From positions 1-31,025 of the IMG/VR virus record IMGVR_UViG_3300033067_000637: a DNA stretch of 31,025 nucleotides; one strand, written 5' to 3'. Below are positions 1 to 6,587 of this stretch, one piece after another. The DNA is from a virus (lineage: Duplodnaviria > Caudoviricetes). The notes below the pieces were generated by a model. That model had not been told where the DNA came from, did not search any database, and was given only the letters and a program-made list of their open reading frames with translations. Position 1 is the first letter of the stretch, and each line of letters opens with the position of its first letter. The position numbers were made by a program, and so were the translations under genes.

Positions 1-599
1 GGAAGCTCGCCCTTCAACTGAGCGATAAACTTCTCAGCCTCGGCGATGCCGTAGACGTTCGTCTTAACACCAGCCTTATCGCGCGCCTCTGCGTTGCCCT
101 TCATATCCTTGGCACGCTTGATTGCACGCTCAAGATCAGCGAACAACGAGTAGTCACGGAATACATCTTCTTTCTTGATGCTGAGATGATAAGGCTTAGA
201 CAGCAGCGTTGTAATAACCTGCGTCTTGTCCTTTTCAATGTCCGCTTTGAGAGCTTCCATATTTTCCTTAACAAACTCAAGGCGCGTCTTCTTAGACGCA
301 ATATCCTTGACTTTCTCAAAGCCGAGCGGCATTGCCCACTCGATGATTGCACGTGCATCTTCATTCCGTTTCTCTTCGACGAGAACCTGAATGAGAGCAT
401 TGATATACTTGCTCGTCATGTTCTGCGCAGCGTGCATGATGAAGCACGTACTGACCTGCGTCAGATTGTTGCGGAAGTGTGCTGCTGATTTCTTGATACC
501 AGCCAGCATGAGTTCCATCTTGTCATTGCCACCGTCAAGCCGCTTGCTCACGTTAGCAATGTCGATTGCGCTGACTTCCAGCGCTACAGCCTTAGCCAT
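1..599 (-). CDS. Early-region hypothetical protein (>=199 aa, runs off the left window edge; absent from the ORF track)
   Basis: Manual translation of the - strand from ATG at 599 gives MAKAVALEVSAIDIANVSKRLDGGNDKMELMLAGIKKSAAHFRNNLTQVSTCFIMHAAQNMTSKYINALIQVLVEEKRNEDARAIIEWAMPLGFEKVKD..., open to position 1. GGAG Shine-Dalgarno lies at 610-607. Confidence 0.85.
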   Translation of the reverse strand, partial: MAKAVALEVSAIDIANVSKRLDGGNDKMELMLAGIKKSAAHFRNNLTQVSTCFIMHAAQNMTSKYINALIQVLVEEKRNEDARAIIEWAMPLGFEKVKDIASKKTRLEFVKENMEALKADIEKDKTQVITTLLSKPYHLSIKKEDVFRDYSLFADLERAIKRAKDMKGNAEARDKAGVKTNVYGIAEAEKFIAQLKGEL

Positions 600-604
600 T
601 TGTT

Positions 605-1220
605 GTCTCCATTGGTGGATTGGGTTGATTGTTTGGTAGTGGCGACAACAATCAACTGGACGCCACGCTCCAATGAGAGACGGCAAGCCTGCCACACTCC
701 AGCCCTAGTCTGGTTGCATGTGTTAAATGATTTGATTGATTGTCTTTGTGTGGCCAATTCATATGCATCATAACACATGCCAACGCCACACCCTTAGCTC
801 TAGCTTTTGAGACAGCAACATGCTTAAAGCAGCACGTTGGACGAGCGTTCAATGTTGACGCTCCTAGGCAATACATCGCAACACGTGGCACAAGCTATGC
901 TTGCGAGACACGTTGCTTCATTGCAATCGCATAAGGTTTTGCATCCCGCTCATTCCCATGAACGGCACTGATTAGGTGGCATTAGTTTGCGGTCGGCATG
1001 AGACTTCAAGCAAACAGACTGCATATAAGCATCGCACTATGCGTGCTCATGTCTGTTGGCAAAGCGTCATGTCCCGCTGCATGGCATAGACGCACAAAGT
1101 TGTGCGTTTAAGACACGGCATCATGTGTCTTTGCGTCACGCTATGTCGTGACGTCTATCAACTGGCGACATTGCAACCCCTACCCGCAAGCATACTCACT
1201 ACGCTTTCGCTTGCGGGCAG
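605..1220 (-). ncRNA. Candidate large structured non-coding RNA or structured mRNA leader of unknown class
   Basis: No convincing ORF, and about 10 adjacent or nested inverted repeats, e.g. 624-633/647-656, 716-725/771-780, 816-824/831-839, 843-848/858-863, 889-895/899-905, 1013-1019/1051-1057, 1090-1096/1101-1107, 1110-1116/1125-1131, 1134-1140/1147-1153, 1180-1191/1209-1220. Internal A-C mismatches on + become G-U pairs on -. Confidence 0.6.
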
Positions 1221-1227
1221 TCGCGCC

Positions 1228-1635
1228 TCAACCCTTAAGGGCTCGCCGTGCTTTAGCTTTCGCAGCTTCGATCAAGTCGATCTGAGCTAAAGCCTTAGCG
1301 TGCTTAGCCTTATCCAATCTAGCATAGCTGCTAGGATGGCTCTTATATGTGGCCTTACATTCACCGTCACTTAGCATCGCGACATGTTCTTCACGTGCCG
1401 TCGCGCTATCAGGATCATATGACCATTGCGGCTGTCTCGCACCAATCGGTTGCTTGCGATACGGGATACCGATATTAAGTCGGTGTTCCGATACGGCAGG
1501 ATAAACCATTGGCTTGCTAGGTTTAGGAAACACACCTTTCTTGTCCCCGTATCTGGCCCGTTGTCCAGCTTTCGGGGAAGTGTGAGACATAACCTTAGCT
1601 AGAGCTTCACCGCGCAAAGATAGAATTTTGCGCAT
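1228..1635 (-). CDS. Small basic (K/R/A/P-rich) hypothetical early protein, 135 aa
   Basis: Part of ORF 1228..1770. The likely start is ATG 1635 (MRKILSLRGEAL...), preceded by GAGG. No recognised family. Confidence 0.7.
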   Translation of the reverse strand: MRKILSLRGEALAKVMSHTSPKAGQRARYGDKKGVFPKPSKPMVYPAVSEHRLNIGIPYRKQPIGARQPQWSYDPDSATAREEHVAMLSDGECKATYKSHPSSYARLDKAKHAKALAQIDLIEAAKAKARRALKG

Positions 1636-1655
1636 GTTCGCCTCGCCAGTTATAG

Positions 1656-1725
1656 CCGTGCACCTCACGGTCGGTTTGCTAGCGGCGAAGGCCCCAAGGG
1701 CCGCTCCTGAACCGCTAACGAAACC
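1656..1725 (-). promoter_or_regulatory. Structured 5' leader of the first early gene
   Basis: Stems 1673-1685/1712-1725 (one G-U on -), inner 1690-1694/1698-1702, and 1656-1660/1666-1670, immediately upstream of the RBS. Confidence 0.45.
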
Positions 1726-1742
1726 CTTATCGCCTGGAATTG

Positions 1743-2030
1743 TGTCAAAAATAAGGCAAGGTTCGATCACGAATTATCACGAAATGATCACGGTTTCGTG
1801 ATCGCTTTCCCGCGTGGGGAAAGGCACGAGCGCGCGCGAAGACGCGATAAACAGTGTTCAGTCAAGCTCATGGCCGATCACGTTATTGTGATCACGAGGT
1901 GTAATGACAGTGTATGGGCAACTGTGCTATGCGCGCGAGCGCGTGCGTGCGCATGCGTCAGGGACGGGAGAAAGTCAAGTAAAATTAATGTGATCGAAGT
2001 TCATGGTTTGTTCAGGGTGACAAATCACTA
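1743..2030. repeat. Array of (G)ATCAC(G)/(C)GTGAT(C) motifs with three leftward TTGAC elements; probable early promoter / genome-end control region
   Basis: ATCACG at 1766, 1776, 1787, 1877 and 1891. GTGATC at 1798, 1888 and 1990. GTGA-N4-TCAC at 2017-2028. GTCAA (TTGAC on -) at 1744, 1861 and 1974. Confidence 0.55.
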
Positions 2031-2190
2031 AAAATGCAGGAAACTAGCGATTCGTTCCGTATATACAACCCGAGGCTAGTTGTGGGTACAAGGGGGGGCG
2101 GGGGGTGCGGGTGCAGGATGGAATTACCCTCTAAAAATATCTAGCAGAAATTCTAGAAACAGAAATATTTAAGGTCATGTACGATTTCTC

Positions 2191-2219
2191 TTGACAAACA
2201 GAAATACTTAGTGTACTCT
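2191..2219 (+). promoter_or_regulatory. Sigma70-type promoter for the packaging/structural arm
   Basis: TTGACA (2191-2196), a 17-nt spacer, then TACTCT (2214-2219), with an AT-rich upstream region, ~150 nt before the small terminase. Confidence 0.65.
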
Positions 2220-2371
2220 TAAGTGAGGATACAGTATAATACCTTAAGTAATACTTAAGGATATCCTCTAGATCTCAAACGGTATAGTATTTAAAACTCA
2301 GCCGGTATAGCAATAGTAAGAGCCTCAGAACAGCTATTCTTTTGCTATACCGTTGAGTTTCTATTAATAGA

Positions 2372-2890
2372 ATGACAAAAGAAATCTATTATAACGATAA
2401 TGGTACTTTAAAGGGAGCTGAAGGTCTCTTTGTGGAATGGGCCACTAGACGGGAAGATACTCGTCCAGTATACACCCTAGCCAGAGAAGACGGAGACTTC
2501 CCCTCCCTGTACAAGCTCTACATGTCCTGTGAAGATCTCACGGAATGGGAGTTTGCAGATAAGTACCTGGCTGGATGGGACCACCTAGAGTATCTCCAGC
2601 AGAACCTCAAATTCATCAAAATCCTAGATTCCTGGCGCAAGGATCTTGAGCAGAAGCTTAAGAGCCGTGCCTTTAGGGCTATCCAGCTCATAGCCGAAGA
2701 GGGCGGTAAGAACTCCTTCGAGGCTAATAAACTACTCCTAACCGGTAAATGGAAGGAAGTAGTCGAAAAGGCAGGAAATGCTCGTGGACGTCCCTCCAAG
2801 CGAGAACTAGACAAAATCGCCAATGAAGAGTACGAATCCACTAAAAGCATTAGGGATGATCTCAAAAGGCTAGGTATCGATTTACAATAG
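2372..2890 (+). CDS. Terminase small subunit (probable)
   Basis: 172 aa helical protein directly upstream of the large terminase. Has the C-terminal 'RGRPSK' motif typical of the small terminase at this position in such podoviruses. Confidence 0.7.
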   Translation: MTKEIYYNDNGTLKGAEGLFVEWATRREDTRPVYTLAREDGDFPSLYKLYMSCEDLTEWEFADKYLAGWDHLEYLQQNLKFIKILDSWRKDLEQKLKSRAFRAIQLIAEEGGKNSFEANKLLLTGKWKEVVEKAGNARGRPSKRELDKIANEEYESTKSIRDDLKRLGIDLQ

Positions 2891-2965
2891 CCCTAGGAGC
2901 CCCTAGGAAGCCCGTACAGCGGTTTTTAGAATAGGGCCGCTACCCATATAGCCAGAAGGACCACA

Positions 2966-4507
2966 ATGGCCTCCAGAGACGAATTAAAGGCCCTAGCGCG
3001 AGAGGCCGCTGAAAACGACCTAGAGAAGTTCATATCCCTGGTAGCCCCCAAGCGGGTACTGGGTCACGTACACAAAAGGTTAATTTCCTGGTGGACACGA
3101 CAAGACGCGAAGAAGTACCAGCTAACTCTTCTTCCAAGAGACCATCAAAAGTCTGCCCTTATTGCTTACAGAGTTGCGTGGGAAATCACCCGCAATCCTG
3201 CTATTCGCGTTCTGTTTATAAGCAGTACGTCGAACCTCGCTACGAAGCAGTTAAAGTTTATCAAAGATATTCTTACCTGCGACTCCTATCGTTCCTACTG
3301 GCCAGAAATGGTACATCCGGACGAAGCCAAAAGAGAGAAGTGGACTGAGACCGAAATCTCGGTAGATCATCCTCTCCGAAAGGCAGATTACATCCGTGAC
3401 CCTACTATCTTCACCGCTGGTCTTACCACTTCTATTGTCGGTCTACATTGTGATATCAGTGTTCTCGATGACGTGGTTGTGGACGATAATGCGGCTACAG
3501 AAGATGGACGAAACAAAGTCAAACAGCAAGCTTCCTATCTTGCATCGATTGGCGGTGTGGATTCTAGGCAGTGGGTCGTAGGAACTAGATATCATCCTAA
3601 AGACCTTTACGGTCACATGATGGAACAGACAGTTCCTGTCTTTGATGATGAAGGTGAGCAGATAGACAGTACCCACTTGTTCGAAGTCTTTGAAGAGCAA
3701 GTTGAGACCAACGGAGATGGTACAGGTACCTTCCTCTGGCCACGTGCTCAGCACTTCGGTAAGTGGTTTGGATTTGATCAACGAGTACTAGCGGAGAAAC
3801 GTGCTCTCTACTATGACAAAACAAAGTTTAGAGCCCAGTACTATAACGATCCTAACGACGCTAGTGAAGCAGGTATTAATCGAGACAAGTTCCAGTACTA
3901 CAATAAAGCAAGTCTCCATGAAGAACATGGAAGATGGTACTATCGAAATTCAAGGCTTAACCTCGTCGCAGCAATCGACTTTGCTTACTCGGTTAAAGAA
4001 GGAGCTGACTACACTTGTATCGTTATTGTCGGAGTAGATAGTCAACACAACTATTACGTTCTCGACATAGAACGATTTAGAACAAGTAAGATCAGTGAAT
4101 ACTTCAATAAGATTCTTAAGCTCCACATGAAGTGGAACTTCAATAAACTCAGAGCAGAAATCACTGCAGCTCAGAGTGTCATTGTAAGAGATCTTAAAGA
4201 TAACTACATTCGTCCTCAAGGACTGGCAATCTCAATCGAGGAAGTCAGACCTATCAAAGACAAAGAAACACGAATGGATGCAGTGCTACAACCTAAGTAT
4301 AGTAACATGCAGGTTTGGCACTATCCCGGTGGTAACTGTGAACTTCTTGAAGAAGAACTTGTTCTGCAGAATCCTCCTCACGATGATATGAAAGATGCTC
4401 TAGCTTGTGCTCTTGAGAATGCACAACCTCCTTCATCCTCATTCATGGGCATTCAAAGAAACGTACAAGAAGAATTCTACAATCCGAAGTTCGGAGGTAT
4501 TGGTTAA
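2966..4507 (+). CDS. terL: Terminase large subunit
   Basis: Walker A-like LLPRDHQKS, Walker B-like GLHCDISVLDDVV, coupling motif VVGTRYHPKDLY, and RNase H-like nuclease motifs AIDFAY...ADYT and HDDMKDAL. AAGGA RBS. Confidence 0.95.
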   Translation: MASRDELKALAREAAENDLEKFISLVAPKRVLGHVHKRLISWWTRQDAKKYQLTLLPRDHQKSALIAYRVAWEITRNPAIRVLFISSTSNLATKQLKFIKDILTCDSYRSYWPEMVHPDEAKREKWTETEISVDHPLRKADYIRDPTIFTAGLTTSIVGLHCDISVLDDVVVDDNAATEDGRNKVKQQASYLASIGGVDSRQWVVGTRYHPKDLYGHMMEQTVPVFDDEGEQIDSTHLFEVFEEQVETNGDGTGTFLWPRAQHFGKWFGFDQRVLAEKRALYYDKTKFRAQYYNDPNDASEAGINRDKFQYYNKASLHEEHGRWYYRNSRLNLVAAIDFAYSVKEGADYTCIVIVGVDSQHNYYVLDIERFRTSKISEYFNKILKLHMKWNFNKLRAEITAAQSVIVRDLKDNYIRPQGLAISIEEVRPIKDKETRMDAVLQPKYSNMQVWHYPGGNCELLEEELVLQNPPHDDMKDALACALENAQPPSSSFMGIQRNVQEEFYNPKFGGIG

Positions 4508-4509
4508 CA

Positions 4510-4704
4510 ATGTGGACCTTGATACTGATCTTGTTAACTGTCAATGGTGACAAGATCGAAGTTAATCTTCATACTGAAGCTCCATCGCAGAATGTCTGTT
4601 TGATGGATCAATCCACAATGGCTCAGTACCTAGGCGATCATCCGGATAAGAAACTCCACAGCTGGCGCTGTGAGAATGTGAACAAGATTAGGACTGCAAT
4701 TTAA
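4510..4704 (+). CDS. Small hypothetical protein with hydrophobic N-terminus and two Cys
   Basis: Fills the terL-portal gap exactly. Its TAA overlaps the portal ATG (TAATG). Confidence 0.6.
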   Translation: MWTLILILLTVNGDKIEVNLHTEAPSQNVCLMDQSTMAQYLGDHPDKKLHSWRCENVNKIRTAI

Positions 4705-6587
4705 TGAGCGGTAAAACTGTAGACGTAATGGACATGATCACACCCGATATCCTCGGGTTGAACATTGCCAACAAGTTTCAGACTTGGGAGACTCTACGTA
4801 ACATTAAGGTTGCTCAGTGGAAAGAAATCACTGAGTACATCTTTGCTACGGATACTACGGTTACACCAAACAGCAAGTTGCCTTGGTCCAACAAGACGAC
4901 TATTCCTAAACTTTGTCAGATCCGTGACAATCTTCATGCTAACTATCTGACTACTCTATTTCCTAAGTCTAAGTGGCTTGAGTGGCAGGGTGATGATGAG
5001 GAATCCAATACTCGAGACAAAAAAGATACTATTGAACAGTACATGAATTACGTGATCGATCGTAATCAATTCTATGATACTGTATCTAGGCTTGTCTATG
5101 ACTTCATCGATTATGGTAATGTATTTGTCATGCCGGAATGGTATGATGGAACTAACGTAATTGAAGATAGAACTCAGGTAGGTTATGTAGGACCTATCCT
5201 GAAACGCATCTCTCCTCTTGATATTGTCTTTAACCCAATCTCTCCTACGTTCGAAGAAGCACCTAAGATCATCCGCTCACTTGTGAGCATGGGTGAGGTT
5301 AAGGCTATGCTTGACGCAGAGAGTGCCGATGAAGATGAGAAAGAGATTGCTAATAGCATCTTCCAATACATGAAAGATCTTCGTCACAACATGACGAACA
5401 TGTCTTACACTGTTACGTGTAAGGATCGTGTATTCCAGATCGCTGGCTTTACGACTTATCAAGTCTACTTGGAATCTAATGAAGTTGAAGTTCTCACCTT
5501 CTACGGAGATATCTGGGATGAGGAAACCAACAAGCTCTACAAGAACCAAGTTATCAAAGTCGTCGATAGACACAAGGTTATCTACAACAAGCCCAACAAA
5601 ACATTTTTCGGAACGGCTCCAATCTACCATTGCGGATGGCGATTGCGACCAGACAACCTATGGGCAATGGGACCCTTGGATAATCTGGTTGGCATGCAGT
5701 ATAGGATCGATCACCTCGAGAACATGAAGGCTGACTGCTTCGATCTTATTGCATATCCTCCGCTTAAGATCAAAGGCTATGTCGAAGACTTCAAGTGGGC
5801 TCCCATGGAGAAGATCATCGTTGGAGATGACTCCGATGTTGAGATGATGTCTCCTGATGTTCAGGTTCTTCAGTGTGATAACCAGATTGCCATTCTCGAA
5901 AATAAAATGGAAGAGATGGCTGGTTCTCCTAAGGAAGCTATGGGCTTTAGAACTCCAGGTGAAAAGACTGCGTATGAAGTACAGCGTATGGAGAATGCTG
6001 CTAGCCGTATCTTCCAGAATAAGATTGGATACTTCGAGCGACAGATCATTGAGAACGTAATCAATGCTATGTTGGAAATGGCTCGTCGTAATGTCACTAA
6101 GCAGACAATCAAAATCTTTGACAACGACATGAAGTTTGACAGCTTCATGGATCTTACTGCCTATGACATCACAGGTAATGGACGTATCAGGCCTATGGCA
6201 GCAAGACACTTTGCTGAGAAGGCTCAGATTGTACAGAACCTTAACAACTTCCTGGGAAGCCCTGCAGGACAAGATCAGATGGTGAGCGTTCACTTCTCTG
6301 GTGAGAAACTTGCTAAGGCTTGGGAATGCCTACTTGAGATCGAACCGTACAAGATCGTACAACCTTACATTCGTCTCATGGAACAGGCAGAGGCACAGAA
6401 ACTTTCACAGGCTGCACAGCAGAACGTAGCAATGCAGGCTGCAACTCCGACAGGATTCCTACCGGGTGATCATGACCAAGAAACCGACTCGTTCAACCTC
6501 CCAGAACCAACCGACTCCAACTCCATCCCCGCACAAAGCGGAAGTGGGACTGGCGCTGGAGTGGTTCCTGGAAACTACGGACAGTAA
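4704..6587 (+). CDS. Portal (head-tail connector) protein
   Basis: 627 aa, between terminase and scaffold. Podovirus portal-like segments (RPDNLWAMGPLDNLVGMQYRIDHLEN; GFRTPGEKTAYEV) and a low-complexity C-terminus. Confidence 0.9.
   Translation: MSGKTVDVMDMITPDILGLNIANKFQTWETLRNIKVAQWKEITEYIFATDTTVTPNSKLPWSNKTTIPKLCQIRDNLHANYLTTLFPKSKWLEWQGDDEESNTRDKKDTIEQYMNYVIDRNQFYDTVSRLVYDFIDYGNVFVMPEWYDGTNVIEDRTQVGYVGPILKRISPLDIVFNPISPTFEEAPKIIRSLVSMGEVKAMLDAESADEDEKEIANSIFQYMKDLRHNMTNMSYTVTCKDRVFQIAGFTTYQVYLESNEVEVLTFYGDIWDEETNKLYKNQVIKVVDRHKVIYNKPNKTFFGTAPIYHCGWRLRPDNLWAMGPLDNLVGMQYRIDHLENMKADCFDLIAYPPLKIKGYVEDFKWAPMEKIIVGDDSDVEMMSPDVQVLQCDNQIAILENKMEEMAGSPKEAMGFRTPGEKTAYEVQRMENAASRIFQNKIGYFERQIIENVINAMLEMARRNVTKQTIKIFDNDMKFDSFMDLTAYDITGNGRIRPMAARHFAEKAQIVQNLNNFLGSPAGQDQMVSVHFSGEKLAKAWECLLEIEPYKIVQPYIRLMEQAEAQKLSQAAQQNVAMQAATPTGFLPGDHDQETDSFNLPEPTDSNSIPAQSGSGTGAGVVPGNYGQ

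Follow-up and report, generated by a model that had tools for sequence, protein, structure and literature searches.

The early genome end and the genes flanking the spacer

The window analysed here, 31,025 nucleotides in all, is a 31-kb piece of the genome of an uncultured podophage. Packaging and virion genes occupy the plus strand from position 2372, and the early and replication genes lie on the minus strand. The large terminase (TerL) shares 57.6% identity with its counterpart in Lentibacter phage ICBM1, and the genes are ordered as in Zobellviridae, with a terminase/portal/capsid arm opposite an early and replication arm; judged by sequence, the phage appears to be a Zobellviridae-like podophage, with no formal taxonomic assignment. 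Because the 40-kb contig of a close relative starts at the base matching 2175, we infer that the early genome end lies there, with a likely terminal-repeat region at 2065..2175 that bears a weak likeness (E 0.21) to the terminal repeat of ICBM1. This region holds a G-rich run on the plus strand (2087-2112), and the stretch 2087-2195, which does not differ in the relative, weakly resembles sequences before the terminase genes of several other loci. Directly before the small terminase gene, 2270-2387 forms a long hairpin (arms 2303-2316/2339-2352; z of -6.4 over 120 nt on the plus strand), possibly a processing site or a late-gene control element. Repeated palindromes and GC-repeat tracts (repeats D9, D15, I3 and I12) fill 1785-1946, between the genome end and the first early gene, and may be protein-binding sites.

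Read from the genome end, the minus strand presents non-coding DNA with a weak promoter candidate, gene 1, a long spacer and gene 2. The candidate host-polymerase promoter (1721..1748, minus strand), from which the early transcript would start, has a good -35 and a weak -10 element; it passes a relaxed scan only in the relative, one base of the -10 being different in the window. Gene 1 (1228..1635, minus strand) encodes a basic protein of 135 residues (27 K+R, pI 10.2) that has no PHROG, Pfam or Atlas match and belongs to no family; its six homologues, all unnamed, are 59-94% identical to it. Gene 2 (1..599, minus strand, ATG at 599) is cut by the window end and encodes 202 residues in the relative. 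Its product is phrog_1448/DUF6863-like, a widespread early protein of unknown function; the structure model (pLDDT 93) matches only uncharacterised podovirus proteins, and neither a solved relative by sequence nor a named family in Atlas was found. Codon changes between window and relative are 17 synonymous against 10 non-synonymous in gene 1 and 32 against 8 in gene 2. In one of the relative's two contigs (L002, near 1795) about 50 nt present in the other (L001) are missing from gene 2 and split its frame, possibly an assembly error. The relative also has a hairpin-rich spacer of about 120 nt 3' of gene 2 (L091 2101-2230, z -2.9), and L091 4651-4800, inside an ORF, reaches z -6.2.

Coding content and folding energy of the spacer

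The spacer extends from the gene 1 stop to the gene 2 start (600..1227, minus strand, 628 nt). Its longest minus-strand frame, 652-891, could encode 79 residues, against 48 in the relative, and no frame keeps its length there, in agreement with the first-pass annotation, which had seen no credible ORF. That annotation had also presented the gap as exceptional in an otherwise compact genome; the spacer is indeed non-coding, but 1636-2371 is likewise devoid of a credible gene. A leader peptide was considered at TTG 852, which an SD-like word precedes, and set aside, its length being 66 residues in one genome and 35 in the other. Consensus scans found no promoter or terminator bounding the spacer, and the single internal promoter-like site (8 of 12 positions, at 655) was discarded as it is not kept in L001.

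Folding energy is a modest guide at this locus. The minus strand of the spacer folds to -242.7 kcal/mol (z -7.5) and the plus strand to -222.2 kcal/mol (z -3.2), each against 20 shuffles; with 60 shuffles the minus strand has a z of -5.2, and none of the 60 is as stable. As a control, 5 of 22 other 628-nt windows of the same genome reach z of -4.0 to -4.9 (12 shuffles each). Stability alone is thus weak evidence: the expected advantage over shuffled sequence is there, but it is only slightly better than that of other parts of the genome.

Covariation with a relative

The comparison with the relative speaks more clearly. One further full haplotype was compared, that of contigs L001 and L002, which are identical to each other across the spacer and 85.7% identical to the window there. 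Divergence within the left 3 kb is highest at the two spacer ends, which show 37 and 47 differences per 200 nt. When pairs were folded from the window alone and read against L001, the 60 substitutions left 8 double changes, 11 one-sided changes that still pair and 10 broken pairs. We shuffled the 60 substitutions among like bases, 3000 times under each of three nulls: double changes then averaged 1.0-2.2, and 8 was reached by at most one of the 3000 shuffles under each null. Pairs folded from L001 alone gave 6 double changes against 0.9-1.4 under the null. The same procedure yielded no double change in gene 1 and one in the upstream non-coding DNA, and a fold fitted to both genomes contains 14 double compensatory pairs across the whole spacer length.

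The one-sided changes carry information on the strand. Within the local helices, seven of them make or resolve a G-U pair on the minus strand, two of these seven coming from the sequencing-run contigs X1 and X7 only, and one makes an A-C. From the covariation, from a clean 24-nt deletion in L001 that is confined to a hairpin tip (H5, below) and from the direction of the wobble changes, the structure of the spacer is, on this comparison of sequences, under selection in the sense orientation of the early genes. Selection on minus-strand RNA, originally proposed from four internal mismatches, is thereby backed, with one 86%-identical relative as the point of comparison. Run contig X1 is a mosaic across 600-1240, with L001-like letters at 948-1070, the 24-nt hairpin tip kept and a window-like 3' end, and it points to recombination within the spacer.

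Helices of the 5' part and core

The helices first listed by eye all exist: 9 of 9 arm pairs, 6 of 6 hairpins and 4 of 4 A-C mismatches were found where they had been placed. In the predicted fold, the 5' part (1090..1220, minus strand) consists of hairpins H1 (1220-1180), H2 (1153-1134), H3 (1131-1110) and H4 (1107-1090). H3 has three double compensatory changes against L001 and H4 one; H1 and H2 are unchanged. They are followed by H5 (989..1077, minus strand), predicted to be a long irregular hairpin of 89 nt, the size of an RNase III substrate. Compared with L001 it has one double change, one mismatch that has become a pair and one change to G-U, with two more G-U changes in X1 and X7, and the 24-nt deletion in L001 takes away only its tip.

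The core (816..965, minus strand) is predicted to hold H6 (965-946, with a GNRA loop and one double change), H7 (925-867, 59 nt), a hairpin at 863-843 and H8 (839-816). A 133-nt stretch of this core (815-947) is identical in L001, but we do not take it as a sign of selection, since equal or longer identical runs occur elsewhere. Downstream of the core, H9 (748..791, minus strand) pairs 791-785 with 754-748 around an inner stem, 779-774 with 765-760. This fold is kept in both genomes, the inner stem with three double changes and one G-U to G-C, the outer stem with one change to G-U; it replaces the helix previously drawn between 713-731 and 767-784, two pairs of which are broken in the relative.

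Two mutually exclusive folds at the 3' end

The last 150 bases of the spacer are predicted to flip between a fold that exposes the SD of gene 2 and one that hides it. The basis of this is a direct repeat, D2, whose two copies lie 111 nt apart (minus-strand positions 744-732 and 633-621), and a strand, 655-644, that is complementary to both. The hairpin at 624-656 described earlier is therefore present, but it is only one of the two alternative pairings of 655-644.

In the predicted ON domain (644..744, minus strand), a 12-bp long-range helix, 744-732 with 655-644, closes the hairpins 712-700 and 685-661; the latter holds an anti-SD strand (681-670), and the gene 2 SD is free. In the predicted OFF fold (605..681, minus strand), the anti-SD pairs with 615-605 and covers the SD at 610-607, enclosing a second helix between 656-647 and 633-624. 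The ON domain covaries: its 22 pairs show 3 double changes, 2 single and none broken against L001, where the null gives 0.3 double and 3.3 broken (4 of 20000 shuffles, an optimistic figure, the helices having been chosen with both sequences in view). The OFF fold is kept only through a shift of register. Its helices measure 11 and 10-11 bp in both genomes, and the 11-bp anti-SD:SD helix persists despite two changed anti-SD bases, but counted in the register of the window its 21 pairs show no double change, 2 single and 3 broken. The OFF fold could be a by-product of the D2 repeat and of the SD-like 3' arm of the ON hairpin. Competition between the two folds would explain why most of the broken pairs in the spacer fall in 600-790.

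When growing prefixes of the transcript are folded, the ON fold comes first and the OFF fold once the SD has been made, in both genomes, and ON is the minimum-energy fold of transcripts ending just past 644 in both. In L001 it stays the best fold through five successive prefixes; in the window it does so through only two, and competition from the helix 784-713 displaces it in 11 of 16 prefixes there. Predicted energies over 750-591 are -36.5 (ON) against -36.3 kcal/mol (OFF) in L001 and -34.8 against -40.0 kcal/mol in the window; the barrier between the states is estimated at 16-23 kcal/mol. At equilibrium the gene 2 SD is predicted to be at most 11% unpaired in both full-length spacers. In silico, then, both genomes show the order expected of delayed folding, with the SD open early and hidden finally; the two-state switch accounts for about 190 of the 628 nt.

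Searches for homologues, transcripts and earlier accounts

Rfam 15, which includes ROOL, GOLLD, riboswitches and tmRNA, gave no match at gathering score anywhere in the window, in line with the novelty first supposed; the best hits in 500-2400 are at chance level (E 0.62-8.7, and 0.86 inside the spacer). No homologue of the spacer was found by distant blastn in GenBank phages, nor in the 79 other TerL-relative loci searched with blastn and nhmmer. Homologues of genes 1 and 2 at 56-66% identity lie on further contigs: P0007 and P0003 each on one of 28,629 bases, probably a single contig, P0002 on one of 49.7 kb and P0043 on one of 50.3 kb. Viral, metagenome and genome collections scanned with gene 1, gene 2 or TerS returned the same two contigs or none (one scan covered 30 of 64 parts). 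Twenty sequencing runs contain part of 1-2400, and the contigs of the eight examined represent phage variants from samples of wastewater, freshwater and algal bloom. In four runs recorded as RNA, 24-30 of the 30 bins of 1-6000 are covered, late genes included and with no excess over the spacer; these are contigs and possibly derive from DNA.

In the literature consulted we found no account of the spacer element or of DUF6863, although the supplements of one preprint (bioRxiv 10.64898/2026.09.22.753630) could list multi-hairpin regions of this kind. For LUZ19, two ncRNA candidates are given at 21.1-21.4 kb, in a Table S7 that stops at 250 nt (PMC10914365), and the sections consulted of PMC10914365 and PMC7316996 report no early-leader RNA in LUZ19 or phi80-18.

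Structured spacers before gene 2 homologues in other phages

A profile of gene 2 relatives matches 8 of the 79 other TerL-relative loci, at the same place. We folded the spacers of six of the eight on the sense strand (328-725 nt; 14 shuffles), with z of -3.7, -2.8, -4.6, -3.1, -1.3 and -3.6. One locus (L028) has a small ORF between spacer and gene 2 homologue, another (L076) folds better on the opposite strand, and in L032 and L037 the homologue is preceded by only about 67 nt. None of these spacers resembles the present element in sequence. One member of the gene 2 family matches 372 phage records, including phiKMV-like, Acinetobacter and Ralstonia podophages, and six cultured examples were examined. 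Phage phi80-18 has the same layout, a small basic g01, a 573-nt gap (z -2.7) and g02; in K4 a gap of 641 nt (z -2.5) lies three genes earlier; the gaps in BA6 and RSB1 measure 10 and 128 nt; and in TM34 and Babayka the gene of this family comes first, after a long non-coding end. A structured spacer is often, though not always, present at this place, with a sequence specific to the lineage. Across 13 distant leaders of the gene 2 family the SD is not consistently hidden (0.04-0.98 unpaired).

Two of the distant loci share a different structured spacer before their gene 2-family gene (L076 1035-1567 and L027 429-1050, minus strand). It opens with an intrinsic terminator, directly behind a small basic gene, and three short words are shared towards its 3' end; antitermination is more readily argued for that spacer than for the one in the window. 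A 16-nt word common to both was rejected as a family motif: of its 27 matches only those two lie near a gene of this family, and it is unlike the present element. Among L102-L128 the same word closes a long hairpin just before start codons in three GC-rich phage contigs, twice in each and about 3.2 kb apart; this looks like a separate conserved regulatory element.

Discussion

Here we describe a spacer that separates early genes 1 and 2 of a podophage, lacks a conserved ORF and covaries along its length. Our leading explanation, which we put forward tentatively and would not yet call probable, is that it is a cis-acting leader within the early mRNA, likely a translational switch for gene 2 that works by delayed refolding; the two states, their order and their energies are predictions of the folding model. 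Host polymerase would start at the genome end and, having read gene 1, enter the spacer. In the emerging RNA, 655-644 would pair with the upstream repeat copy at 744-732 and the anti-SD would be held in hairpin 685-661, so that the enhancer and SD of gene 2 are free. After the SD has been made, slow refolding would let 655-644 pair with the downstream copy at 633-624 and the anti-SD cover the SD. Each transcript would then give a burst of gene 2 protein, as in the maturation leader of MS2. The 450 nt of hairpins at the 5' side would likely stabilise the message, provide RNase III sites, or offer the basic gene 1 protein a place to bind and so tilt the switch. Transcription, the trigger of refolding and these roles of the 5' hairpins are steps that we infer. 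The locus was initially read as a large ncRNA or, failing that, an elaborate leader, and it is the second of these that fits best: a stand-alone ncRNA is without support, since consensus scans show no promoter or terminator bounding the spacer, it is predicted to pair with the ribosome-binding site of gene 2, and the searches of GenBank phages and TerL-relative loci found no homologue beyond near-identical phages.

Possible as well, though clearly less so, is that the spacer serves processing and stability of the message. The irregular stems (H5, H7 and the SD-covering stem) would be RNase III sites, the rest would protect the message, and the OFF pairing would be incidental or opened by cleavage. 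Within the predicted folds, H5 and H7 are stems of the right kind, irregular, about two helical turns long and placed between early genes, and at 89 and 59 nt they are similar in size to the T7 R1.1 site (PMC6121014). Such a function would agree with pairing that is kept while the sequence varies, with the second hairpin-rich spacer 3' of gene 2 in the relative, and with the unrelated structured spacers before gene 2-family genes in 5 of the 6 distant loci folded (z -2.8 to -4.6). One stem is enough for cleavage, however, and about twelve are found here, and the covarying long-range helix 744-732:655-644, which closes a junction, is no feature of an RNase III site. The two functions can be combined.

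A bolder extension of the delayed-refolding switch, which we regard as rather unlikely, would make the whole RNA a multi-domain infection timer of 630 nt, of a new class, in the first transcript of a lytic dsDNA phage. The entire molecule would change from one global state to another, the basic gene 1 product acting as ligand, and would thereby pulse or gate the gene 2 family and possibly license read-through into the early arm, and the structured spacers of other Zobellviridae and of phi80-18 would be analogous, swappable modules.

We consider it improbable that the spacer is a trans-acting RNA (a decoy, sponge or anti-defence RNA) freed from the early transcript by nucleases. Its size, the 14 double compensatory pairs over the full length, GNRA-type loops and the want of an Rfam family would all suit such a molecule. 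But the consensus scans show no promoter or terminator of its own, it is predicted to pair with the SD of the next gene, no homologue turned up in the 79 other TerL-relative loci (blastn, nhmmer) or in GenBank phages, and the loss of a hairpin tip is tolerated; known large RNAs are typically far more conserved.

Nor do we expect that the basic gene 1 protein and the RNA together form a bipartite antiterminator, in the manner of conAn or of lambda N/nut, that gives read-through of the early and replication arm of about 24 kb; this, too, seems improbable. Its appeal lies in the layout, since conAn likewise places a small first gene and then 260-600 bp of non-coding DNA at the start of a long operon (PMC8191782), in the basic character of the gene 1 product, and in the small basic gene that also precedes the spacer in L076, L027, L038 and phage phi80-18. 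Yet the sense strand of the first 24.5 kb of the relative holds no strong U-tailed terminator in a scan that does detect the late-arm terminator, none of 12 one-mismatch matches to a boxA-like word falls in 600-1700, and gene 1 is unlike those other basic genes or any family. Finally, it is very improbable that the spacer is a DNA-level element (a single-strand or cruciform signal for ejection or replication) or a remnant of small genes whose hairpins arose by chance: the spacer does lie within 1.6 kb of the end likely to enter first, G-T wobbles are also possible in single-stranded DNA and the folding z is not far from that of other regions, but the covariation excludes chance, cruciforms would favour neither strand, and the one favoured here is sense for both flanking genes.

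A few models, namely T7 processing, the lambda N leader and MS2, have shown that the earliest phage genes can be controlled at the RNA level. Delayed folding over an SD is known already from MS2, as is a structured repressing leader from lambda N; what the switch would add is the competition of two repeat copies for one strand, before a common protein family without known function. If gene 2 needs a timed pulse, this would suggest that a common early protein is toxic or helps to take over the host. Should the switch prove wrong, the spacer would still be an RNA structure under selection that has not been described before, but of an ordinary kind.

Comparison with known systems

Like ROOL, GOLLD, OLE and other large RNAs in Rfam, the spacer is several hundred nucleotides long, helix-dense and phage-borne; unlike them, it has no Rfam match, is narrowly distributed and is coupled to a start codon. 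The conAn system of plasmid pLS20 is a bipartite antiterminator of Gram-positive conjugative plasmids, whose operons contain terminators (PMC8191782). The two share a small first gene followed by a non-coding region of several hundred bases (628 nt here) heading a long operon, and little sequence conservation between members. They differ in that no strong terminators were found here, and gene 1 matches six unnamed proteins and no Pfam or PHROG family.

Repression by the lambda N leader is reportedly relieved by RNase III, to go by the title of one study. In lambda, nutL lies about 200 bp before N in a highly structured leader that exerts translational repression (PMC5725501). Here, too, we predict that the first early transcript carries a structured leader governing the translation of an early gene, but the present spacer has no boxA-like word, its basic-protein gene lies upstream of the RNA and not downstream, and the phage is lytic. 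The T7 R1.1 site, an early RNase III site, is a 60-nt stem with an internal loop (PMC6121014). The resemblance there is in irregular stems of about 60-90 nt between the early genes of a podophage that uses host polymerase; the T7 sites are single stems, whereas about twelve helices and a long-range junction domain share one spacer here.

The closest parallel to the proposed mechanism is the leader of the MS2 maturation gene, in which delayed folding hides the SD and a burst of translation comes beforehand (PMC4974527, citing Poot et al. 1997). A burst before a more stable, SD-covering fold is predicted here too. MS2 is an RNA phage with a short cloverleaf leader, whereas the present case is an internal spacer of about 630 nt in a dsDNA phage, and, unlike in MS2, its timing is predicted to arise from two copies of a repeat that compete for one strand.
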